From: a virus
Lineage: Duplodnaviria; Heunggongvirae; Uroviricota; Caudoviricetes
Direction: 5' to 3' (one strand)
Virus record (IMG/VR): IMGVR_UViG_2529292828_000009
Length of the DNA stretch: 64,000 bases
Program-made: the position numbers and the translations under genes
In this document: in pieces, positions 39,843 to 53,621 of the stretch
Position numbering within the stretch: position 1 is the first letter of the stretch
Layout: each line of letters begins with the position of its first letter
Notes under the pieces: model-generated
The model's input: the letters and a program-made list of their open reading frames with translations, nothing else
What the model was told of the DNA's origin: nothing
Database searches by the model: none

Positions 39843-41141
39843 ATGATTATGACTACAAATCCGGACGGATACATCTCATTTTTAAAACCCGGTAGTAACG
39901 ACTGGAAAGCATTAGATAGTAAATCGTTTATTTATTGGCGAGACTACATAACGAATGAAAGTTTAGAAGAGTCAGGAGATTCTATTTCTCCAGCACAATC
40001 TCTTACTGATGGTGAAAAGAAGGAGTTGAAAGACAATCAGGCATATATAAACGAACTATTACTAAAATCATTACAATTCCCAAATCTTGCATTCTTCGCT
40101 GGGAGTGGTACTTCGCTTGGGGACGTTGGAGGACCAAGCATGTGGGATCTCTGGAAGTGTGCAATGTGGAGTGAATCTTCTATAAACGAGGATGGTCAAT
40201 TAAAACCTGATGCTCAAATTGTTTGTGATAAAGTAAAATATAAAGAGCGAGAGTATCCTAACATAGAACACTTTCTTTCTAATTGTGAAGCATATTTAGC
40301 ATTTCATGATGATGAAGAAGTGTTGAATTTTTTAAATAAAGTTAAAACAATTATTTTAGACAAATGTCGCTCATTTATTGATGATGGCAACTGTGATCTT
40401 TCAGCTTACATCAATTTATTACAAAAAATGGGGAGGAGGAGAGTCAGAGATCCTAGACTAAAAGTTTTCACAACTAACTATGATTTAGCCTTTGAAACAG
40501 CTGCTTCTGAATTAGGAATGATGGTAGTTGATGGTCTTTCATATACAGGAGTTCGCAGATTCGATGGTAAATATTTTAACTACGATGTTGTTAAAAGAGA
40601 TGAAAACGAGCATGAGTTTGTAGAGGGCGTATTCCAGTTATTTAAACTCCACGGTTCTGTAAGTTGGATAAGAAAGGATGGGCAAATATATGAATCCAGC
40701 CAACCAACAGCAACAAACGCATGTCTAATATATCCAGCGAAAGGTAAATATCAGCAAGCCTTTATTCAACCTCACTTAGAATTACTTTCAAGATTGTTAG
40801 ATTTCTTGAGAAAAAGAAATAACTGTTTAGTTATATCTGGATTTGGTTTCAATGATGACCATCTTTCTGAACCAATTTACTCAGCAATAAAATCCAATCC
40901 AAGCATGAGGTTGATTATAGTAGATTTCAAATGTGCAACTCATATTCGGAATAAAGGGGGGGACGGTTCTAGTAAATATTGGGATTTACTAAAACAACTC
41001 TCACTATCAGGTTATGACATTCACTTCATAAATGCATCTTTCAGTGATTTTGTTAAATTAGTTCCCAATCTTAAAGCATTAACCCCAGCAGAACAGTTGG
41101 CTAAGGTAATAAAACAAGTAGGAGTTAACAATCAATTATGA
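39843..41141 (+). CDS. SIR2-family (sirtuin-like NADase) protein, partner of HerA
   Basis: FFAGSGTS Rossmann loop, VFTTNYD, KLHGS motifs; 432 aa. Confidence 0.7.
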   Translation: MIMTTNPDGYISFLKPGSNDWKALDSKSFIYWRDYITNESLEESGDSISPAQSLTDGEKKELKDNQAYINELLLKSLQFPNLAFFAGSGTSLGDVGGPSMWDLWKCAMWSESSINEDGQLKPDAQIVCDKVKYKEREYPNIEHFLSNCEAYLAFHDDEEVLNFLNKVKTIILDKCRSFIDDGNCDLSAYINLLQKMGRRRVRDPRLKVFTTNYDLAFETAASELGMMVVDGLSYTGVRRFDGKYFNYDVVKRDENEHEFVEGVFQLFKLHGSVSWIRKDGQIYESSQPTATNACLIYPAKGKYQQAFIQPHLELLSRLLDFLRKRNNCLVISGFGFNDDHLSEPIYSAIKSNPSMRLIIVDFKCATHIRNKGGDGSSKYWDLLKQLSLSGYDIHFINASFSDFVKLVPNLKALTPAEQLAKVIKQVGVNNQL

Positions 41142-42859
41142 TTAATACAACACTACAGCTTGGTATTTTGAGGGGCGACCTTAAGGTTGGAGTAGTCTCA
41201 TCAATTTTTGCTCAAACAGTTAGAGCAAATTTAATCTATGCAGGGGAACTCAGCGGAACATATATAGAAGGTTGTAGATATGGAAAAGGAGAAGTTGGTG
41301 AAATATTATTAATAGAAGGACAACAATCTATTGTTCTTGGCCGTTTAATAGAGGTTAAATTACCAGAGCGAGATAGAGGTGAAATATCTGTCGGGTCTCA
41401 AGGAAACTTCAAAGTTGATGCTATCGGCATTATACAACTTCTTGGAACTATTGATCCTTCAAATTTTAGAATTGATTCAGGAATCAAATCATATCCTCGA
41501 TTAGGAGATCGAGTTTATTCTGCTCCCTTAGATTTTATTTCTTTAATACCAGAATTAATTAATAAAGGAATTAAAGATAACGAGGAAGAAAGAATAGGTA
41601 TTGTATTAGGCATTATATCTGGAGGGGCAACAAGTATAGTAACTGTTGAACCTGATAAACTCTTCGGTCGTCATTGTGCTATCTTAGGAGCTACAGGCGG
41701 TGGAAAAAGTTGGACAACTTCCAAGTTAATTGAAGAGTGTTCGAATTACGAAAACTCTAAAACTATAATAATTGATGCAACCAGTGAGTATAGATCGTTT
41801 AAATCTGATTATTGTTTACATTACCATTTAGGTGCCCCAATAAATAAAAACATAAATTCTTTAGAATTTAGAATTCCACCTACCGACTTTGTTGAGTCAG
41901 ACTTTATTGCCATGTTCGATCCTTCTGGAAAAGTACAGGGTCCTAAGCTAAAAGAAGCGATAAAAAGCCTTAGATTAGTAGCTTTAGAACCTAGAATAGC
42001 AACCGATGGTATTTTAAAAAAAATCAATCAACCTAAAACAGATTATCGACGCGCAATGAATACTGGAGACAACTCTAAACTTGTTGATAATCCATCACAA
42101 CCATTTGATATAACAAAACTTATAAAACAGATTGTACAAGAATGTTGTTACGATAATGGAGATAATACTTGGGGAAACGCTGCAACTCAAGACTTAAGCT
42201 ATTGCTCATCTTTGTTAACCAGAATTCAAGCAGTAACGTATGCCAACTCGTTAAGGTCTGTTTTTAATAGTAACGAGGATATATCCACACTAGGTGAAAT
42301 ATTAGAAACTTTTTTACAATCTGATAAACGAGTCCTAAGGTTATGCCTAAGTGATGTTAGCTATGAGTTTTATGCTAGAGAAATTTTAGCCAATGTAATC
42401 GGCAGAAAACTTTTAACTTTAGCTAGGCTTGAAAAATTCAGAACAAGACCGCTGTTAGTTATTGTTGATGAAGCCCATAACTTCCTTGGCAAACGGGTTG
42501 GTTCTGAAGATCATGCAATTAAACTTGACGCTTTTGAGATGATTGCAAAAGAAGGCAGGAAATATGGCCTTAATATATGCTTAACAACTCAAAGACCCAG
42601 AGATATCACTGAAGGTGTGCTTAGTCAAATTGGAACCTTATTGGTTCATCGCTTAACAAACGACCGAGATCGAGAAGTCGTTGAGCGTGCATGCGGTGAA
42701 ATTGATAAATCTGCAGCATCTTTTCTACCAAGTCTCAAACAAGGTGAAGTTGCTCTTGTAGGGGTTGACTTCCCTATTCCTATGACCATCCAGATAGATA
42801 AGCCAATATATCCACCAGAATCTGATTCTCCAGGCTATTGCAATATATGGAAAAAATAA
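41138..42859 (+). CDS. HerA-like FtsK/HerA-family ATPase
   Basis: Walker A AILGATGGGKSWT, Walker B LLVIVDEAHNF, TTQRP; 4-nt ATGA overlap with SIR2 gene. Confidence 0.8.
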   Translation: MINTTLQLGILRGDLKVGVVSSIFAQTVRANLIYAGELSGTYIEGCRYGKGEVGEILLIEGQQSIVLGRLIEVKLPERDRGEISVGSQGNFKVDAIGIIQLLGTIDPSNFRIDSGIKSYPRLGDRVYSAPLDFISLIPELINKGIKDNEEERIGIVLGIISGGATSIVTVEPDKLFGRHCAILGATGGGKSWTTSKLIEECSNYENSKTIIIDATSEYRSFKSDYCLHYHLGAPINKNINSLEFRIPPTDFVESDFIAMFDPSGKVQGPKLKEAIKSLRLVALEPRIATDGILKKINQPKTDYRRAMNTGDNSKLVDNPSQPFDITKLIKQIVQECCYDNGDNTWGNAATQDLSYCSSLLTRIQAVTYANSLRSVFNSNEDISTLGEILETFLQSDKRVLRLCLSDVSYEFYAREILANVIGRKLLTLARLEKFRTRPLLVIVDEAHNFLGKRVGSEDHAIKLDAFEMIAKEGRKYGLNICLTTQRPRDITEGVLSQIGTLLVHRLTNDRDREVVERACGEIDKSAASFLPSLKQGEVALVGVDFPIPMTIQIDKPIYPPESDSPGYCNIWKK

Positions 42860-42897: not shown

Positions 42898-44169
42898 CTA
42901 GATAGTTTTTTTTGCAAAGTCGTAGGGGGTTATATATTCCTGAGTGTTAGCATCAAGATAATCGGCCCACCACTGAACCATTAAACGACGCTCATCCAAA
43001 TGCTCTGAAGTATGAATATAAGCAGCCCTAACGCTATTACGCTCAGAGTGGCTTAGCTGACGTTCTATCGCGTCATCACTCCACAACCCTGATTCGCCCA
43101 AAGCACCGCGCGCCATAGTTCTGAATCCATGCCCGCAAACTTCGGTTTTTGTGTCATACCCCATTGTGCGCAAAGCACTGTTAACCGTGTTTTCACTCAT
43201 AACTTTAGTTGCGTCATGATCTCCCGGAAACAGTAGCTCTTTATCACCACTAATCTGCTTAAGCTGCTCTAACAAAATCATCGCCTGCCGACTAAGCGGA
43301 ACGATATGCTCCTCTTTCATCTTCATCCCACGGTACGAGTAACGGACACCTTTAATTTCTTCTCGTTTTGCCGGTATACGCCAAAGAGATTTATCGAAGT
43401 CGAATTCATCCCAGCGAGCGAAACGCAACTCACTGGAACGCACAAAAGTTAGTAAGGAAAGCTCGACTGCAATCCGTGTCATTAAACGGCCACGATATGC
43501 AGCAAGACGTGCAAGAAACTCAGGGAAACGGTTAGAGGGTAAAGCTGGATAGTGTCGTGCTTTGGTTGTCGATAAAGCACCAGCCATATCACTGGCTGGG
43601 TTTGAGTCGATATAATCGTTCTGTACGGCATAACGCATAATAGCTGTAACACGCTGCTGAAGACGCTGCGCGACGTCATGCTTACCACTGGCATCAACTT
43701 TTTTAATCGGGGCTAACAGGTGGCTTGTTTTAAGCTGGCGGATATCGGACGATCCGATATGAGGGAAGATATAAAGCTCAAGATAGCGAAGAACGCGCGC
43801 TCTATGGTCTTCACTCCAGCGCTTGTTACTGGCATGCCATTCACGAGCGATCGTTTCGAAAGTATATGCCCCCGATTTCTCGGCCTGAGCCGCTTTCTGC
43901 TCGGCTTTTGGATCAATACCCTGCACTAATAATCTTTTAGCTTCATCACGTTTTGCCCTTGCCTGGGCAAGTGTCACAGTAGGCCAAACGCCAAAAGCGA
44001 GGCGATCCTCTTTTTTGTCTGAAGGGCGTCTGTATTTCATACGCCAGTATTTAGATCCCTTGGCCGAAACCTCAAGATACAAACCGCCACCATCGGCCAT
44101 TTTGTAGGTTTTGTCTTTTGGCTTTGCGGTCTCGACCAGTCTGGCGTTGAGCTTCATTTGGGGGCACAT
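42898..44169 (-). CDS. P4-family tyrosine integrase of the satellite island
   Basis: Homologous to the integrase at 62135-63385 (shared AVMRYAVQN, FVRSSELRFARW, VCGHGFR, RAAYIH); probable start MKLNARL at 44157. Confidence 0.85.
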   Translation of the reverse strand: MCPQMKLNARLVETAKPKDKTYKMADGGGLYLEVSAKGSKYWRMKYRRPSDKKEDRLAFGVWPTVTLAQARAKRDEAKRLLVQGIDPKAEQKAAQAEKSGAYTFETIAREWHASNKRWSEDHRARVLRYLELYIFPHIGSSDIRQLKTSHLLAPIKKVDASGKHDVAQRLQQRVTAIMRYAVQNDYIDSNPASDMAGALSTTKARHYPALPSNRFPEFLARLAAYRGRLMTRIAVELSLLTFVRSSELRFARWDEFDFDKSLWRIPAKREEIKGVRYSYRGMKMKEEHIVPLSRQAMILLEQLKQISGDKELLFPGDHDATKVMSENTVNSALRTMGYDTKTEVCGHGFRTMARGALGESGLWSDDAIERQLSHSERNSVRAAYIHTSEHLDERRLMVQWWADYLDANTQEYITPYDFAKKTI

Positions 44170-44320
44170 TTCTAATCGAAGTCAAGATGCCCCTAATTAT
44201 GCCCCCAATGGCATCCGGATTTCAACGGACAATCTCGGACGACTCCGGACATAAGAATCACTGTACTCATTGAATTATAAGGAACAATTGGACTTTCTCG
44301 GATGATCTTGGAAGTGCTAA

Positions 44321-44344
44321 TGGTGCCGAAGGCCGGACTCGAAC
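44321..44344. repeat. 24-bp direct repeat of the leuX 3-prime end (att junction between the two islands)
   Basis: TGGTGCCGAAGGCCGGACTCGAAC identical to 63575-63598. Confidence 0.85.
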
Positions 44345-44691
44345 ATCGCAACTATCCTTATGATCTTTAGTAATTAAAGCAATCTACATTGTCGATGATA
44401 CCATCATTGATACCATCAGACCCGATTGATGATAATCGAACAGTAATAAAATATGACTAAACAATTTATGCTTCAACATAAGATTGAATGCTTTGATCTA
44501 CCATTTTAATGCAGTGGAAAAATTTTTAACACAATACTTAAGAAAAATAATTTCATATAAAAACTACATTTCATTTCATATAGTTAACACACCAAAAACA
44601 ACTGTATATAAACCCAGTAAAAAATGGTAGAATCACTATTGTGTTCAATTGTTGAACATTTATAATACATTTGTCGGATAGGGGGGTGTTT

Positions 44692-45279
44692 ATGCAAAGG
44701 AACACATACAACAAAGTAGGTCTATACATCCTATCTTTAGCTATGCTTTTTGTTTTTATTATTATCCTGACTGCCAAAATCCCCTTTTGCTTCACTTCGG
44801 ATTGTAGCTTCATAGGTTTGAAGAGACTTGTATTAACAAATATTGTTCCTATTGTTTGCTTTGTATTTTTTCTATTTAGTATTTATTTTTATAATAGATT
44901 AAAAAACATAACAAAATACAATGGACAAGATAGCGTTAAAATAACATCATGTCAAAGCGAAAGCTATGAAAGTTTAACATTCTTAGCAACATACATTGTA
45001 CCTTTTATGGGGTTTAGTTTTGAAGACATGCAAAAGAATATAGCATATCTTTTGCTTGTAGTAGTAATAGGCATTATTTTTATTAAAACAGACAAGTATT
45101 ATGCGAATCCAACTTTAGCTCTGTTTGGCTTTAAACTATACAGGGTAAATATACTACACCCAGGAAGTGGAGAAACAAAAAATCTGATAGCTATTTCAAA
45201 TGATGTATTAAAAGTGGACGATAATGTTTATTATAGTTTCTTTGATGAATTTGTTTTTATAGCAAGGAAAAAAATATGA
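44692..45279 (+). CDS. Four-TM membrane protein, KwaA-like (Kiwa defence system component A)
   Basis: Four hydrophobic helices; ATG at 44692 after a G-rich RBS; 4-nt overlap with the downstream gene; call is by architecture only. Confidence 0.45.
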   Translation: MQRNTYNKVGLYILSLAMLFVFIIILTAKIPFCFTSDCSFIGLKRLVLTNIVPIVCFVFFLFSIYFYNRLKNITKYNGQDSVKITSCQSESYESLTFLATYIVPFMGFSFEDMQKNIAYLLLVVVIGIIFIKTDKYYANPTLALFGFKLYRVNILHPGSGETKNLIAISNDVLKVDDNVYYSFFDEFVFIARKKI

Positions 45280-46223
45280 CTACTCAGCAGTTAAAAGAAA
45301 AAATTTCAAAAATAATTGATAACTTTAGCGGAATCAGGGTTGTATTTACTACTACTGCTAATGAACTAAAGCTTTCCAGAATTGAAGGGAGTGCATTAAA
45401 TAGCATAGCTGAAGGGTTTATTGACAAAATCAAAGAAGACATTATAAATAATGAAGATCTCACCTCACCATTGCTGTCCAATTTTGATGATAGAAAAAAT
45501 GCCTTGTTTAAATTTGATTACGAACAATATCCTGAAGAATTTAACAAAATCACTCAGGCCATCGCTATCCCTCCTAACTCACAAGATTATTATAACCCTT
45601 TAAATAAATTCACAGATGTGAAAGGAATTATAATTTTAATAAGTGGAGATAACAAATGCCTGGCTCTTTATAAAAACAAAACTAACCTTGCAGTATTGAG
45701 AAATAGCAGAAAAATGTTTAATTTAGTCCCTGACCCTGATGGATACTTGAAACAACTCCCTAATGAGATATTACGGTTAGATTTCAATTATGATCTATTA
45801 TCAATTGGTGAGGATTTTTACATTAAAAATCACAAGACTCTTGAAACTCAAATGAAATTTCATCAAGTGATTGAAGCCCAGGCAGTTATTGCTTTAAATT
45901 CTTTACGGGATTCACTACTAATTGAAGACATATCAGGTTTAGAAAAGAGTTCGAGAGAAATTTCATTCGCTAGAAAGTTGGCAAAAATCTCCAAACATTC
46001 TCCTGTTTTGGGGAAAATAGATACTAAAACAATTATCGATTATGTATCCCAACATAAATATTTATCTGCAATACTTCAGATTAATGAAGCAGGAAATAAG
46101 TTATTAATTAAAACCAAGACATCACAGAAGCATTTCATTAAACTCATGAGCGATGATTATTTACAATCAGATCTAACTAAAATAATATACATGAGCATAG
46201 CAAAAGACAGATTAGATGAATAG
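45276..46223 (+). CDS. KwaB-like soluble protein (DUF4868-like, Kiwa component B)
   Basis: 315 aa, coupled to the upstream 4-TM protein; call by size and architecture. Confidence 0.45.
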   Translation: MTTQQLKEKISKIIDNFSGIRVVFTTTANELKLSRIEGSALNSIAEGFIDKIKEDIINNEDLTSPLLSNFDDRKNALFKFDYEQYPEEFNKITQAIAIPPNSQDYYNPLNKFTDVKGIIILISGDNKCLALYKNKTNLAVLRNSRKMFNLVPDPDGYLKQLPNEILRLDFNYDLLSIGEDFYIKNHKTLETQMKFHQVIEAQAVIALNSLRDSLLIEDISGLEKSSREISFARKLAKISKHSPVLGKIDTKTIIDYVSQHKYLSAILQINEAGNKLLIKTKTSQKHFIKLMSDDYLQSDLTKIIYMSIAKDRLDE

Positions 46224-46237
46224 AATTTTAAGTAGAA

Positions 46238-46278
46238 GTGACAAATATTATAAACCATTCTTGAAATATATTTGTCAC
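46238..46278. terminator. Bidirectional hairpin between convergent genes
   Basis: 11-bp perfect inverted repeat GTGACAAATAT (46238-46248) / ATATTTGTCAC (46268-46278). Confidence 0.5.
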
Positions 46279-46287
46279 TATTACTAA

Positions 46288-46959
46288 TCATTCGCGTGCT
46301 TGATTATTTATGCTGGATGTTCTAATTGTTGCCGAATGCCAATACCCACCACTATATGTTCTTGCTATAGTAATAAATCCAGTACAGGTAATTACTGTCA
46401 TTAAAATCAGGAAAATATAATAGAAATTAAGCGGAGCTTTCAAATCAAAAGGAGGTAACGAATACACCAGCAACCCTATCCATACAATAGTTATAAATAA
46501 ACTAATAATTTGGTTTATCTTAGATACTGATATTGGAGATGGACCAGTAAGTAAATGAACCGAAAACTCTTTTATTCCTTTCGGTTTTGCACGAGATAAC
46601 ACCACTTTATATAGTGGACCATTAATATTATCTTCTAACATATCGACATGTTTTTCCCAGTTTCCCTGCCAATATTTACTACCACGGTTAACACAGAGCC
46701 AACCGAATGAAAATACAATTCCCAGTGAACACAGTAATACGGATAAATCTGTCTTAGCTGTAGAAGAGGAAGTCTGTATAGCAACAAAACCAGCTAAAGT
46801 TGCCGCTATAAAAGTCCAGAAATAAGTTGCTCTTTTCCAGTAATGGTCTATCTCATATTTCCGTATATCTAAAGCCTGTAGCAGAGCATTCTTATTACAG
46901 TCTCTATCATTAAGAAAACGGCTACGATATTCCTCATCTGAAAATGGAGTAATTGGCAT
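46288..46959 (-). CDS. Orphan multi-TM membrane protein with a SLATT-like N-terminal arrangement
   Basis: Charged helix, then TM pair (YFWTFIAATLAGFVAI ... LSVLLCSLGIVFSFGWLCV), then two further C-terminal TM helices; no match recognised. Confidence 0.5.
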   Translation of the reverse strand: MPITPFSDEEYRSRFLNDRDCNKNALLQALDIRKYEIDHYWKRATYFWTFIAATLAGFVAIQTSSSTAKTDLSVLLCSLGIVFSFGWLCVNRGSKYWQGNWEKHVDMLEDNINGPLYKVVLSRAKPKGIKEFSVHLLTGPSPISVSKINQIISLFITIVWIGLLVYSLPPFDLKAPLNFYYIFLILMTVITCTGFITIARTYSGGYWHSATIRTSSINNQARE

Positions 46960-46985
46960 ATTGATTTACCTCTATTTATAATAGT

Positions 46986-47013
46986 AAAAGAGGGGTCCCC
47001 CCCCCTCTTTTTT
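46986..47013 (-). terminator. Rho-independent terminator at the 3-prime end of the RM gene
   Basis: AAAAGAGGGG (46986-46995) / CCCCTCTTTT (47002-47011) stem with flanking T-run. Confidence 0.55.
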
Positions 47014-50000
47014 AGTTATTTTTAAACAAAACCTTTACTATTCCATCTATATCCCTTAGGAAACTCTCGAAAGAGGATCTATTAGCCTTAGCTTCATGAG
47101 CCTTTTTTGAAAGTTCAGACAGCTCACGATGCTTTTTATTACCTTCATCATAAAGAGGAACATTAATTGGAGGTCTGATTTTAAAAGTTCTGCTATCACT
47201 GGACTTCAGAATGTACTCCCCAGTGATTGATGAGTTAAAAATAGCACAAATGTAATGTGCCTCATCCAGGGTAATAAATTTACCATCTTGCCTCTGAGAT
47301 ATACTCACAGCATGGTTCTGAAATAAAGGTCTCTTTTTGTCACCCCATGGAGTATCCATTTGACTCACAACTGCTGCTGCCCATTTAGTGTTATCACGAA
47401 AACAAACAAAATGATCACCATAAGTATATTCACCTACACGAGCCAATGCGTAAAATGCAGTAATATTGCTTTTACCTATGATTTTGTCATTGTATCGAGT
47501 CTGCGACTCTAATAACTGTTTATTATTAATGAAATAGTCAGCCAACATAGGGCTTTCTTTAACAAGCTCATCTACAGGTATCGGTTTACGACTCAATTCT
47601 CTATATGGAAAGGGTACGAAGAACTCAACATCTTTTACCCCAAAAGGTTCAATATTTGTTCCTTTAATCAGGGGGTATATATGCTTGGTTTCAGCAAAAA
47701 TCATTTGTTTTGCCACTTTATACTTAGACTTGCCACCCTGATAATTTTCAAAAATTGCAGTGTTGTTAGCTTTTTTTGTCTTAAATTTCCATAAGAATAA
47801 TTCTTGAGGGAAAAATTCAATCCCTTCCCTGCCATGATATTCGCAATATCCACTGATATTTCTGTAATCATTGAGTTTTTCGGAATCTGAAGCATATGTA
47901 AAGGCTGTATTGCTTACACTAACAGTGCCAGCGATCTCTTTACGGATAGAGAACTCATGCGAAATAGCATTAAAATGCGTATGCTGTGAGTAGCTATCAA
48001 GGCTTCTTCCGGTTTTATTTTTCGTCAAAAATGTTAAAGGTATCCCTTTTAAATAATCGACATTTTTTGACGAGAATAAATAAGTCGCAAACTTGATTGT
48101 AACAGGCTTGAATGGATGCCCGGATTCACTCCAGTCGTATACCTCTTGGAGATATAGTTTTTGGTTATCCCCAAAGTTAAACTCTCGAAATCCTTCATAT
48201 GTTTGCTGGAAAAGGATATTTTGAGGCATAAGGAATGCCAATATGCCATCTTTCTCTAACCAGTTTTCAGCAGATACATTAGAAATTAATGCACAAATGT
48301 TAAGGTTTATACCACCAGTAAGCCTATCACCAGAAAATAGGCTCCTACTTAAGCATAAGCCTTTAATTCGTTCTCGATATCCTGCAGGTAAATTTTTCCA
48401 GTCAATCCATGGTGGATTACCAACAACCATATTAAATTTGCCTAAGTTTGCAGTGGTCAAAAAATTAGTGACTATTCTAGCCCAAATTCCATTCCAGTCT
48501 CTTTCTTCTAGTTCGACAAACTTATCTGATAAAGTTTTTAATTTTTCATAAATGCTAGGAGAACTACTAATATCCCCACTTACTTCGATTAATTTTGCAA
48601 AAACACTATCACGATCTCGAAGTTTAATATATCGTTCAATATCAACAATTGCTTTTGAGAACTTATGAGAATCACTCAAAGCTTGAGTAGGCATCTCGAT
48701 ATAAATCGAGCCTTGCAAAGTATTTATTTCGTATCGCAAACAGTCAATGCCATCAATTATGACCTTTTCTGGAACATACGATGCGTCACCAAGATAAATT
48801 GGAATTTCAACTTCGCTACCTTCATCAAGCAAATGTGATATATTGATGAAATAGTTGATTCTTGCAGTTAAAGCTGCAAGAGGATTTAAATCAATACCTT
48901 TGACAGATGTTATGACATCTTTTAATTTAGCTTTGCTATCAGTATGAGTACGACTCAGAACTTTACCTATTAATGTAATTATAAAGGTTCCGCTACCACA
49001 ACATGGATCAATTGCAGTCCAGTTGTTCTTATTTACAACATGCTCTTCAGCAGAGGATATCAAATGCTCTGCAAGCCATTCAGGAGTGTAAAATTCTCCA
49101 AGAGAATGTCTTACTTTATCAGGAATAATGTTCATGTATAGATCTTTGAAAAGATCGTATACTTTTTCACCCTCTTTGAAAAGGTTTCCTTCCTCATATT
49201 CACTTAGTAATGAAAATATATTTTTAATACTAATGAATATATCATCTCCCCATTGTTCCTTAGTACAATACCAAGAGAAAAAGTCACCTTCCAGCAGGTT
49301 CAAAATCCCATACTTCCTGAAAATAGCACCTTCTTCTAATGTGTATAAATAGTTTCTCATTGATTCAGAGTTACTATTGATCATATCTGAAAAATTATAA
49401 TCATTTTCAAATACAAGTCCAGATAATGTTTTATAAGCTATTATTTTTACAATAATCGCATATGCAGTCTGGAGAGCATAAAGAACTTTATATTCATCAT
49501 CGTTAGTAAGTAACCTATGACCAGCAATATCTTCAAGTGATAACTTTCGTTCTAAAATTGCTGTTTGCTGAGATTTATCATCATGTGCAAGTCTAAATAG
49601 CTCCTTCCATTCGTTGAAGAGCATTTGAGAGCGGCCCGTCATGTTATTTTCAAGAGCCGAAAGAAGATTACCTATTAATTGAGTTGTTAAAGATGGAGAT
49701 CCATAGCAAAAATCATCAACGATGTTTTTTGGATGCAATGCCTTCTTATTCAAAAGAACTAAAAGCCCGCAAATTTTTTTAATTGCATTCTTATCAAGCG
49801 GTTGCAACTTTGATGTTAAAATGCCATCAGTATCACGAATAAGGTAATTAATACCGTCTGTTAGCACTCCAACATAGCGTTGATTCCCTTCTAACTTTAA
49901 AGAATCAAGGTAAGCCTGGATTTGAAGCACAGCCTTATTAATATCATTATCTTTTTTTAATTTCTCTCTATGCTTAAACTCTATTACTAAAGATCCAATA

Positions 50001-50290
50001 CGACTATCGATACGCCCCTTACTGTTGCTTCTGCCGGTCGTGTTGTATTTAATACCATCAATAAAAATTTCTTTTTCGGGACGGTAATCAATACCAATGA
50101 AATCTTTAATGAAAGGAATAAAAGCAAGGTCGAAACCAGAAACAACTTCTGCTTCATTTTTGGCTAAATATGAGGACTCATTAATTTTTTTAGATATAAT
50201 ATCAGCAGCTAAAAGAAAATCTGAGTCAGTAACAATCTTTTCTTGAGCTTTGAACTTAATTTTTTTTTGAATTTCTTCTAACACAGCCAT
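47012..50290 (-). CDS. Type IIG restriction-modification enzyme, MmeI-like (PD-ExK nuclease + N6-adenine methyltransferase + target recognition)
   Basis: N-terminal IDSRIGSLVIEFK (D...ExK), SAM motif DPCCGSGTF, catalytic VGNPPW; 1092 aa in one polypeptide. Confidence 0.65.
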   Translation of the reverse strand: MAVLEEIQKKIKFKAQEKIVTDSDFLLAADIISKKINESSYLAKNEAEVVSGFDLAFIPFIKDFIGIDYRPEKEIFIDGIKYNTTGRSNSKGRIDSRIGSLVIEFKHREKLKKDNDINKAVLQIQAYLDSLKLEGNQRYVGVLTDGINYLIRDTDGILTSKLQPLDKNAIKKICGLLVLLNKKALHPKNIVDDFCYGSPSLTTQLIGNLLSALENNMTGRSQMLFNEWKELFRLAHDDKSQQTAILERKLSLEDIAGHRLLTNDDEYKVLYALQTAYAIIVKIIAYKTLSGLVFENDYNFSDMINSNSESMRNYLYTLEEGAIFRKYGILNLLEGDFFSWYCTKEQWGDDIFISIKNIFSLLSEYEEGNLFKEGEKVYDLFKDLYMNIIPDKVRHSLGEFYTPEWLAEHLISSAEEHVVNKNNWTAIDPCCGSGTFIITLIGKVLSRTHTDSKAKLKDVITSVKGIDLNPLAALTARINYFINISHLLDEGSEVEIPIYLGDASYVPEKVIIDGIDCLRYEINTLQGSIYIEMPTQALSDSHKFSKAIVDIERYIKLRDRDSVFAKLIEVSGDISSSPSIYEKLKTLSDKFVELEERDWNGIWARIVTNFLTTANLGKFNMVVGNPPWIDWKNLPAGYRERIKGLCLSRSLFSGDRLTGGINLNICALISNVSAENWLEKDGILAFLMPQNILFQQTYEGFREFNFGDNQKLYLQEVYDWSESGHPFKPVTIKFATYLFSSKNVDYLKGIPLTFLTKNKTGRSLDSYSQHTHFNAISHEFSIRKEIAGTVSVSNTAFTYASDSEKLNDYRNISGYCEYHGREGIEFFPQELFLWKFKTKKANNTAIFENYQGGKSKYKVAKQMIFAETKHIYPLIKGTNIEPFGVKDVEFFVPFPYRELSRKPIPVDELVKESPMLADYFINNKQLLESQTRYNDKIIGKSNITAFYALARVGEYTYGDHFVCFRDNTKWAAAVVSQMDTPWGDKKRPLFQNHAVSISQRQDGKFITLDEAHYICAIFNSSITGEYILKSSDSRTFKIRPPINVPLYDEGNKKHRELSELSKKAHEAKANRSSFESFLRDIDGIVKVLFKNN

Positions 50291-50835
50291 CGTTACATCT
50301 CTATGTTACATAGCAAATTTCTTATAATTTTACCACATTTCAATAAATATTTCATCATGTTTGTTTGGTATTATCCATACACTTGAGAAAAGTTAATTTC
50401 ACAATTAAGCAAGGGCTAACTCTCCGAAGCTCCGCTTCTTATAGTTCCCCTTGATTTTCTTTCTTTCAGTCAGAAAATACAGACATTTCATCATGAAAAT
50501 TGATAATTTATTTTTAGTATTAAAGTATTATCTCACCTTATCGCCGAACCGATTTGAGATTTAGTGCAACTATAAGTATAGTTCCCCTGACAAATAGCTT
50601 TCTTATTTAAGTAACGGTTAAACGATAGGGCCTCACTACTGGTGCCAATCATGCCATACTCTCAAATGCTACCCCTGCAGACAGGGCTCTACTACCGTAA
50701 AGCTGGCATAAAGTATTATAGTTACCTCTCTTAAAAGGAATTTCTAACTCATGTACCAGATCTACATGAGTTCTACATCCCCCTGATGAACTTAGCAGTG
50801 ATAGCTAACCGATACTGAAGTGTACTGCTGAGTGA

Positions 50836-50887
50836 TTTGACAAATAGAAAATATTAAGCTATAACAGTTGTATCCTACAGGATACAA
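50836..50887 (+). promoter_or_regulatory. Sigma70-like promoter (TTGACA-17 bp-TATAAC) followed by a perfect palindromic operator
   Basis: TTGACA 50836-50841, TATAAC 50859-50864, palindrome GTTGTATCCTACAGGATACAAC 50866-50887. Confidence 0.55.
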
Positions 50888-50899
50888 CATGAGAGCATT

Positions 50900-51157
50900 A
50901 TGCCAGAAATAGATAGGCAGGGAGGTTTGGCTTTCTACATGTACTTTTTCGATACGGGAAAACATCATGTTCCTCATGTACATGTAAAATTTGGCGAATA
51001 TGAATTGGTTTTAAGTATAGCGGATGCCCAAGAACTCGCAGGATACTTACCCGATAAATGGAGAAATAAAGCAAGAAAACATGTATTAACAAATAAACAG
51101 AAACTTAAGAAAATGTGGGTTCTCGCCGTGAATGGAAAACAGCCAGGAACTATCTGA
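50900..51157 (+). CDS. DUF4160-family protein
   Basis: MPEIDRQGGLAFYMYFFDTGKHHVPHVHV N-terminal signature. Confidence 0.6.
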   Translation: MPEIDRQGGLAFYMYFFDTGKHHVPHVHVKFGEYELVLSIADAQELAGYLPDKWRNKARKHVLTNKQKLKKMWVLAVNGKQPGTI

Positions 51158-51170
51158 AGAGGAGAGATTT

Positions 51171-51671
51171 ATGAGCAGAATTATAGACTTAGATATTATT
51201 GATGATTTTACTTTGCAGTTAACCTATGAAAGTGGTTTGTCTGGAAAATTTAACTTCTTTAAATATCGTGATTGCGAAGTTTTTAATAATCCTAAAAAAT
51301 TCCAGAAATTTGCTTTGCTACCTACTGGTGATCTCGAATGGTTAGGGGGCGAACGAGTTACTTCCTTAGAACTGTTAGATAAACTTGTTAATATAAGCTC
51401 TACTGAAAAGAGTAATATTTCAGGCACCACCGACATACTCATGATGGCGTTTCAAGATGCTGTTCGTGAAAATAGACCACAGATTATTCAGGCAGCTTTG
51501 CGAGCTATGCTTGATAAGCATGGTGTAGCAAATGTTGCAAATATGACAAATGGAAGTAGAACAAGTATTTATAAGTCCCTAAGCGAAAATACTAATGTAT
51601 CTATGTCTACTGTTATTAACCTTGCTCATAGTGTTATGGAAATTGAGAAAAAAGAAAAAGAAATATATTAA
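51171..51671 (+). CDS. DUF2442-like domain fused to a C-terminal HTH (antidote-like) domain
   Basis: MSRIIDLDIIDDFTLQLTYESG start after an AGGAGAG RBS; C-terminal LRAMLDKHGVANVANMTNGSRTSIYKSL HTH. Confidence 0.5.
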   Translation: MSRIIDLDIIDDFTLQLTYESGLSGKFNFFKYRDCEVFNNPKKFQKFALLPTGDLEWLGGERVTSLELLDKLVNISSTEKSNISGTTDILMMAFQDAVRENRPQIIQAALRAMLDKHGVANVANMTNGSRTSIYKSLSENTNVSMSTVINLAHSVMEIEKKEKEIY

Positions 51672-52013
51672 TCCCCCATTTTAAGAACGAGGATTGTACA
51701 CCCACCTGATTCAATAGCATTCTCTTAATTCGTTTATATGCCCTTGTCCTCATGATAGAATTGAGTACAGAATAGCTTCTCCAAAAAGGAAAATAATGCG
51801 GATAATTATAGCATTTTTAATTTATTCCCTGCGAGTTAAATACCTTTACTATTATAAGATAAAAACCCAAGCATTAGCATAACTTCATTTCATACATCAC
51901 ATCCCCTCACATTTTCTTCATTACATGTTGACATGAAATAAATTTACTTATAATTATATAATATCAATAAGTAATATAGGGCATTTTAACACACACATAT
52001 AAAAGGAGTTTAT

Positions 52014-52430: not shown

Positions 52431-53621
<1,191 letters not shown>

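Follow-up and report, generated by a model that had tools for sequence, protein, structure and literature searches.

A mobile, partner-free gene of the 8xMP membrane protein family in a defence island, and its possible role against phages

Results

Gene and protein family

We analyzed a membrane protein gene in a 64,000-nucleotide stretch of DNA (the window, meaning this whole stretch) from a Caudoviricetes record of IMG/VR (IMGVR_UViG_2529292828_000009). The gene encodes a 223-amino acid (aa) protein of the 8xMP family, also called the RipA family, and is carried in an AT-rich acquired island (31-36% GC), where Kiwa adjoins it on one side and a type IIG restriction-modification (RM) gene on the other. 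This placement between two defence modules agrees with an earlier, unaided reading of the same DNA (the original prediction). The gene and its translation signal are as follows:

46288-46959, minus strand: 8xMP/RipA-family coding sequence, 223 aa, ATG start; the Pfam domain covers residues 27-168, and a fourth transmembrane (TM) helix and a C-terminal tail extend beyond the model
46969-46972, minus strand: GAGG ribosome-binding site, read from the sequence, 9 nt 5' of the ATG

The open reading frame (ORF) is a real and strongly conserved gene. Its start codon is considered correct because homologues conserve an MPxxx(F/Y)S N-terminus; together with the ATG and the GAGG site, this upholds the 223-aa protein that had been proposed. 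The protein matches the Pfam family PF24838 (8xMP) with 135.6 bits against a cut-off of 30 (E = 1.3e-39), residues 27-168 aligning to positions 5-135 of the 136-position model, and the same model matches all 80 of 80 diverse relatives. In RefSeq, the same gene in Escherichia coli BA22372 (98% DNA identity) carries the product name "RipA family octameric membrane protein", and several homologues in UniRef share the RipA-family name. The window protein is a member of a catalogued family, neither an orphan nor undescribed, and the original prediction, which had recognized no family for it, is corrected on this point. In the searchable literature on 8xMP/PF24838, we found no paper on the family or its function beyond Francisella RipA, which is presumed to be the source of the RefSeq family name.

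The family is large. A word-indexed search returned 1,449 homologues (E ≤ 1e-3), including many full-length proteins with 57-93% identity. In an exhaustive HMMER scan of cluster representatives (50% identity), 2,184 clusters had E ≤ 1e-3, and 1,494 had E ≤ 1e-10. Relatives can be found in the Pseudomonadota, Bacteroidota, Acidobacteriota, Planctomycetota, Desulfobacterota, Verrucomicrobiota and Bacillota. Nine of 10 longer homologues show the 8xMP domain alone, while one has C-terminal TPR repeats. This last protein (P0205, 566 aa), in which an N-terminal 8xMP domain is followed by TPR_12/TPR_10 repeats, may be a sensor fusion.

Predicted topology and conservation

Hydropathy analysis revealed four hydrophobic segments at approximately residues 44-62, 72-90, 149-167 and 178-199. 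Lysine and arginine residues are concentrated in the N-terminal region (eight in residues 1-44) and in the loop at residues 91-148 (nine), with one in each short periplasmic loop, and this distribution of positive charge is the basis for an N-in/C-in topology. A single-chain AlphaFold2 model built on 80 diverse homologues was of high quality, with a mean predicted local distance difference test (pLDDT) score of 90 and a predicted template modelling (pTM) score of 0.82. In this model, one helix (residues 19-63) runs from the cytoplasm through TM1 and a second (69-109) passes through TM2 back into the cytoplasm; they are followed by a short helix (128-138), TM3 (145-167) and TM4 (179-197). Hydropathy and the confident AlphaFold model thus both predict a four-TM inner-membrane protein with both termini inside the cell, in line with the N-terminal helix, tight TM pair and two further C-terminal TM helices described originally. 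We found no match among solved structures in the PDB by single sequence or family profile, and none by fold.

Conservation, measured as the mean majority fraction per region, is strongly asymmetric. It is highest in the cytoplasmic helix at residues 91-110 (N-RGSK-WQENWE-HV-LE; 0.84) and in the cytoplasmic helix at residues 19-43 (0.69), and the GPLYK and SVSKxN motifs ahead of TM3 are near-invariant. The positions E36, W41, W101, E102, H104 and S144/N149 are among the invariant ones on the cytoplasmic side. The periplasmic loops (0.29-0.32), TM4 (0.31) and the C-terminal tail (0.38) are variable. This asymmetry, with its maximum in the cytoplasmic helices, suggests that the functional face of the protein is cytoplasmic. 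We regard TM1-TM3, the same span as the Pfam model, as the family core. Past the end of the Pfam model, the window subfamily has in addition TM4, which is poorly conserved, and a cytoplasmic tail bearing a GG(Y/F)WH..TIR motif.

Genomic neighbourhoods

We surveyed 80 species-representative loci, in 79 of which the 8xMP gene was called, and collected the neighbours within four genes on either side. The 524 neighbours of these 79 loci fell into 492 clusters, and no neighbour family recurred as a conserved partner. The largest neighbour cluster, ThiC, reflects synteny among a few metagenome-assembled genomes (MAGs), four of them of Acidobacteriota type. Almost no recurrence was seen when 19 neighbour proteins from other contexts were searched with phmmer, and none of the 79 loci had a homologue of KwaA, KwaB or the window type IIG enzyme within 8 kb.

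The 285 first and second neighbours in this sample match more than 200 Pfam families; the counts given here are among the matches listed and have no background set beside them. The recurrent ones include OLD-like ATPases of the AAA_21/AAA_15 type (6), DNA methylases (3) and DUF4145 proteins (2). Approximately seven neighbours are integrases, resolvases or transposases, and RVT (RVT_1), AbiTii, RE_TdeIII and GmrSD are represented by single cases.

Among close relatives, defined as those with at least 57% identity and found in 12 independent contexts, 7 of the 12 contexts contain defence genes within a few kilobases:

Type IIG RM gene (the window and BA22372)
N6 methyltransferase (MTase), 370-aa protein and Kiwa
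Type IIG RM gene alone, with no Kiwa (locus L006)
Mrr_cat protein as the immediate neighbour (L007)
D12 MTase and AAA_15/21 ATPase in an integrase-relaxase island (L098)
GmrSD and an ABC-3C-like set (L161, Pseudomaricurvus albidus)
AAA_15/21 ATPase and a 279-aa protein, close to SduA_C and DUF4145

Two more of the 12 contexts are minimal mobile units, in which the gene travels by itself:

Vibrio parahaemolyticus chromosomal integron: 8xMP as one cassette between attC-like repeats
L162: 8xMP as the sole gene between two inverted copies of an insertion sequence (IS)

An integrase gene also occurs near the 8xMP gene in Pantoea and in E. coli MB06233, where a divergent copy at the mutS site is one gene away from the integrase. 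We conclude that 8xMP is carried as cargo by mobile elements without a conserved partner, which fits a self-sufficient protein. The association with defence genes is clear among the close relatives (7/12) and only modest in the broad sample, for which there was no control set.

Two of the arrangements merit separate mention. An AAA_15/21 ATPase and a partner of about 280 aa lie directly 5' of 8xMP at L163 (3514-6663) and L055 (5187-8624), so that the pair is shared by Thiolapillus brandeum and a Duganella MAG, which are far apart as species. At L161 (6744-11777), GmrSD comes after 8xMP in the same orientation, as does a set of genes whose CTD10, MC6/MC7 and DUF2326 domains are components of ABC-3C conflict systems.

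Prophage copies and a paired subfamily

In IMG/VR, we found 58 8xMP loci among 2.9 million contigs. Nine P2-like prophages have a copy (38-44% identity) between the genes for tail-completion protein S and baseplate protein V, in the opposite orientation. P2-like phages hold horizontally acquired genes in three regions, and the S-V interval, known as the orf30 moron site, is among these (PMC6823313, PMC3091744). At two further loci (L112 and L113; 52% identity), 8xMP lies between the replication gene A (GpA) and the portal gene Q (GpQ), in an interval described as a hotspot with many P2 defence systems (PMC13586616). This interval of L112 and L113 corresponds to the TO region, the site of old and tin in P2.

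At 14 viral loci, 8xMP is paired with a protein of 177-285 aa that has two TM helices and a helical domain, and that has no match in Pfam or PHROGs:

Paired-subfamily loci (IMG/VR): L133, L138-L140, L143, L144, L146-L148, L151, L152, L157, L112 and L113

At L144 (5902-7239), the two proteins are fused into one of 445 aa. The paired copies are mostly rather distant from the window protein (30-44% identity), although L112 and L113 are also among them, and the partner is absent both from the window and from the 79 analyzed genome loci. The paired set may represent a two-gene membrane system.

Local organization and history of the island

The following features surround the gene or lie within it:

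47012-50290, minus strand: type IIG RM enzyme (PADLOC, 2.3e-156), directly 5' of 8xMP
46986-47011, minus strand: GC-rich hairpin with a 10-bp stem and a short U-tract, between the RM stop and the 8xMP start (-17.4 kcal/mol, z -2.75)
Approximately 46860-46880, minus strand: recombination junction inside the 8xMP gene, where allele identity switches at codon ~30
46663-46665, minus strand: codon 99, GGA (Gly), in the WQENWE motif
46231-46285, either strand: AT-rich inverted repeat with a 12-bp core stem and a 19-nt loop, between the convergent stops of kwaB and 8xMP (z -3.0 and -4.2 for the two strands)
44671-46223, plus strand: Kiwa kwaA-kwaB (NCBIfam, KwaA 188 bits and KwaB 248 bits), convergent with 8xMP

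The 8xMP gene lies 52 nt 3' of the type IIG gene on the same strand. Hairpins had been expected on both sides of the gene, and both were found (46986-47011 and 46231-46285), the former of which resembles a terminator or an attenuator. We found no promoter-like site on the minus strand 5' of the gene in a scan up to 47200, and no Rfam match in 44000-52000. Since the gap between hairpin and ATG is only about 26 nt and no promoter-like site was found, the proposal that the gene forms its own transcription unit is unsupported. The RM-hairpin-gene layout recurs at L006, where a comparable hairpin, which has a T5 tail and differs in the bases of its stem, occupies the same spot in the IIG+8xMP module. 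Expression of 8xMP is probably attenuated and low, through read-through from the RM promoter past the hairpin.

The gene is rare in E. coli, being present in 6 of 5,426 complete genomes. Across the segment with Kiwa and 8xMP, the window shares 98% identity with E. coli O55:H7 RM12579. Doron et al. (2018) reportedly used this strain for the first characterisation of Kiwa. In RM12579 (L004, 11410-14575), a different RM cassette lies 5' of 8xMP, consisting of an N6_Mtase/Eco57I-like protein of 686 aa and a 370-aa protein; the latter has no Pfam match and is presumably a nuclease or specificity partner. The same arrangement of N6-MTase and 370-aa protein precedes 8xMP in Salmonella. At L006, the whole IIG+8xMP module is collinear with the window at 84.3% identity, and Kiwa is missing.

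The first 85-95 nt of the window 8xMP gene are 77-82% identical to the IIG-linked allele of L006 and 57-62% identical to that of O55, while the rest of the gene follows the Kiwa-linked allele of O55:H7 RM12579 (93-100% identity). The gene is therefore a recombinant, in which the RM cassette was swapped by recombination within 8xMP. Because the junction falls inside the gene, both parental cassettes had the order RM then 8xMP. Judging from these allele identities, the 5' ~90 nt arrived with the IIG RM cassette and the remainder with the Kiwa-linked allele, the gene itself having acted as a homology arm.

The codon for residue 99 is also unusual. Of 80 diverse homologues, 61 have Glu in the corresponding column and 3 have Gly; Glu is also found in BA22372, the closest E. 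coli copy. We considered whether E99G could be an inactivating mutation and rejected this as unproven, as Gly occurs in the three relatives mentioned.

Other genes of interest occur further out in the window. A tyrosine integrase (42898-44169, minus strand) and a MobA/VirD2-type relaxase (52431-53621, plus strand) together mark an integrative mobilisable island. An anti-phage pair of SIR2 (432 aa, PADLOC 7e-82) and HerA (573 aa, 1.7e-166) is located at 39843-42859 on the plus strand, just outside the integrase. A homologue of DhiA-like antitoxins (51132-51671, plus strand) scores 132.9 bits with the NCBIfam model antoxin_DhiA, under its 200-bit cut-off, and is overlapped from upstream by an 85-aa ORF (50900-51157, plus strand) that is a candidate toxin. 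Islands of E. coli O55:H7, Salmonella and Pantoea have integrase and relaxase genes of these kinds together with different defence cargo.

Discussion

We tentatively propose, as a possibility that falls short of probable, that the window 8xMP gene encodes a stand-alone, membrane-embedded anti-phage protein of the abortive type, with sensing at its cytoplasmic face. The core would consist of TM1-TM3 together with the pair of conserved helices by which TM1 and TM2 extend into the cytoplasm, and it could assemble into the homo-octamer implied by the Pfam name (8xMP, octameric membrane protein). TM4 would be a variable peripheral helix, alongside short periplasmic loops of low conservation. The conserved cytoplasmic face could detect an infection cue, and the oligomer could then perturb the inner membrane through an ion leak or loss of the proton-motive force. 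The oligomeric ring, the pore activity, the sensing of phage and the defence phenotype are all properties that we infer for 8xMP.

A role in defence is plausible because the gene occurs as single-gene cargo of integrons, IS units, islands and P2 moron sites, often beside defence genes. The functional hypothesis is somewhat strengthened by these mobile-element and hotspot contexts. The stand-alone abortive-infection or toxin-like function suggested at the outset is still plausible on the same grounds, namely partner-free mobile cargo near defence genes, and is tempered by the modest association in the broad sample. A wider and more doubtful version is that the entire 8xMP family is a widespread single-gene anti-phage system missing from defence catalogues, in which a ring with a cytoplasmic vestibule would sense a phage product directly and gate a pore. 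On this widest reading, 8xMP would be a one-gene cassette that moves between integrons, islands and prophage hotspots, and that went unnoticed beside the Kiwa genes of RM12579.

Several observations weigh against an anti-phage function. The window protein has no match in PADLOC v2.0.0 (0 families at E ≤ 0.01), PHROGs or NCBIfam, and tblastn found 0 matches in 50,697 deposited phage genomes. At least ~15 of the 285 first and second neighbours are visibly of defence type, a figure with no background set for comparison, and the broad sample has many housekeeping neighbours, with genes for tRNA synthetases, cytochrome bd and ThiC among them. Of the 12 close contexts, three have nothing defence-like. 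Finally, Francisella RipA is encoded in the core genome, and the links described for it are with LpxA, GlmU and lipid A synthesis rather than with phages (PMC4322802, PMC4688374).

This last point leads to an alternative that we consider unlikely but worth stating, in which 8xMP is an envelope-physiology protein like Francisella RipA that modulates envelope or lipid A biosynthesis, or pH or ion homeostasis, and is spread as a mobile fitness or lysogenic-conversion factor with no direct anti-phage action. RefSeq and UniRef both name the family after RipA, which is homo-oligomeric, has two essential cytoplasmic domains and interacts functionally with LpxA and GlmU (PMC4322802, PMC4688374). Conservation in the window protein likewise falls mostly in two cytoplasmic regions, and many family members are found among housekeeping genes. 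However, the homology to Francisella RipA is putative, taken from the database name. Recurrent lpx genes are not seen among the families listed for the first and second neighbours in the broad sample. With 6 carriers in 5,426 E. coli genomes and a location in an AT-rich island, 8xMP is not a core envelope function in E. coli. Nor would a metabolic regulator be expected to recur at P2 moron or defence hotspots, as an integron cassette and within defence islands.

A second alternative, to which we give rather less credence, is that 8xMP is an accessory of the adjacent defence module, co-transcribed with the restriction enzyme and helping or regulating it at the membrane, for example by positioning it at the site of DNA entry or by acting as a back-up killer. 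The local arrangement is consistent with this, as the gene lies 52 nt 3' of the type IIG gene on the same strand with no promoter-like site between them. The collinear module of L006 (84.3% identity), which lacks Kiwa, has the two genes separated by a like hairpin, the different cassette of N6-MTase and 370-aa protein has the same layout in O55:H7 and Salmonella, and the junction within 8xMP points to two parents that both had RM followed by 8xMP. Restriction-type proteins are also immediate neighbours at L007 (Mrr_cat), L161 (GmrSD) and L098 (D12 MTase). Overall, 8xMP is linked to type IIG in the window, BA22372 and L006, and to other RM types in four further contexts. Against a dedicated partnership, the adjoining restriction genes come from unrelated families, no neighbour family recurs, and no homologue of the window IIG enzyme, KwaA or KwaB was detected within 8 kb at any of the 79 species-level loci. 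Moreover, solo copies occur in an integron cassette, in an IS-flanked unit and at prophage moron sites. A variant in which 8xMP assists Kiwa is countered by the fact that Kiwa consists of two genes, that the genes are convergent, and that seven other E. coli Kiwa loci are without 8xMP.

It is improbable that 8xMP acts as a superinfection-exclusion protein, that is, a Sie-like block to phage genome entry at the inner membrane with no killing of the cell. The moron positions in P2-like prophages, the predicted inner-membrane location, and loci of lysogenic-conversion type on the strand opposite the late genes would all suit such a role. The periplasmic loops, however, span only ~9-10 residues and show the lowest conservation in the protein (0.29-0.32), and nearly all invariant residues are cytoplasmic, which is a poor fit to the recognition of an ejection protein or a periplasmic receptor. 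In addition, most family members reside outside prophages, the IMG/VR loci numbering 58 in 2.9 million contigs.

Least credible of all is a divergent SLATT-type effector, derived from or shared with nucleotide-signalling defence and gated by a small-molecule second messenger: an N-terminal cytoplasmic helix leads into a tight TM hairpin, one homologue (P0076) has the UniRef name "DUF4231 domain-containing protein" and 2 of 80 members have weak DUF4231 matches (E of 0.11 or above), but SLATT_1-6 and DUF4231 have no significant match to the query or to 78 of 80 relatives, no cyclase, SLOG, TIR or similar partner is found among recurrent neighbours or in the window, and the family core has three TM helices and a large conserved loop, not two TM helices.

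If the 8xMP family does protect against phages, as in the stand-alone anti-phage reading proposed here, it would be a very compact, self-contained membrane defence module represented in ~2,200 clusters and undetected by PADLOC v2. Such protection would also bear on work with the RM12579 Kiwa locus, where 8xMP is immediately downstream of kwaB. If the family instead works like Francisella RipA, its spread by mobile elements would make the modulation of envelope physiology a transferable trait. Whichever holds, the E. coli copy is a tractable system for tests on a large and conserved family.

Comparison with known systems

The resemblance to SLATT pore-forming effectors noted in the original prediction holds for architecture alone. 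Like the two-TM effectors of the SLATT clan, 8xMP is a small membrane protein found in conflict loci, with a cytoplasmic helix that leads into a tight TM hairpin. It differs in having four TM helices and a conserved cytoplasmic loop of 58 residues, and in lacking a significant match to a hidden Markov model (HMM) of the clan; SLATT and DUF4231 profiles gave none at E ≤ 10 for the window protein. Nor does any nucleotide-signalling gene (SMODS/CD-NTase, SLOG, TIR or reverse transcriptase) recur among the families listed for the 285 first and second neighbours, where RVT_1 occurs once.

KwaA, the product of an adjacent gene here, is also a multi-TM inner-membrane protein of about 200 aa. It nevertheless belongs to a different family, since the model NF041622 is matched by KwaA and not by 8xMP, and it is transcribed convergently. 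The two systems also part company across genomes, with seven other E. coli Kiwa loci lacking 8xMP and 0 of 79 8xMP loci having KwaA or KwaB within 8 kb. We considered 8xMP as a component of the kwaA-kwaB operon and ruled this out by its convergence with kwaB and the lack of co-occurrence.

The RipA protein of Francisella tularensis (FTT0181c / FTL1914) is a homo-oligomeric cytoplasmic-membrane protein with two essential cytoplasmic domains (PMC4322802). It is needed for intracellular growth (PMC4688374) and migrates at ~18 kDa (PMC2767360). The window protein shares a RipA-like trait, in that its cytoplasmic regions 1-43 and 91-148 have the highest conservation (0.69-0.84). Topology and conservation pattern are therefore alike, and the link, which rests on the database name and topology, is a lead only. 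RipA is a core gene product and smaller, whereas the window 8xMP is rare island cargo of 223 aa.

The moron genes of P2 (old, tin, Z/fun and orf30) offer a parallel in genomic position. The window protein has no sequence relation to Old, Tin or Fun, and the prophage copies of 8xMP are 38-52% identical to it; the copies in the P2 hotspot (L112 and L113) have a two-TM partner gene that is absent from the window. What the 8xMP relatives share with the P2 morons is location, at both the orf30 site and the TO/GpA-GpQ region.

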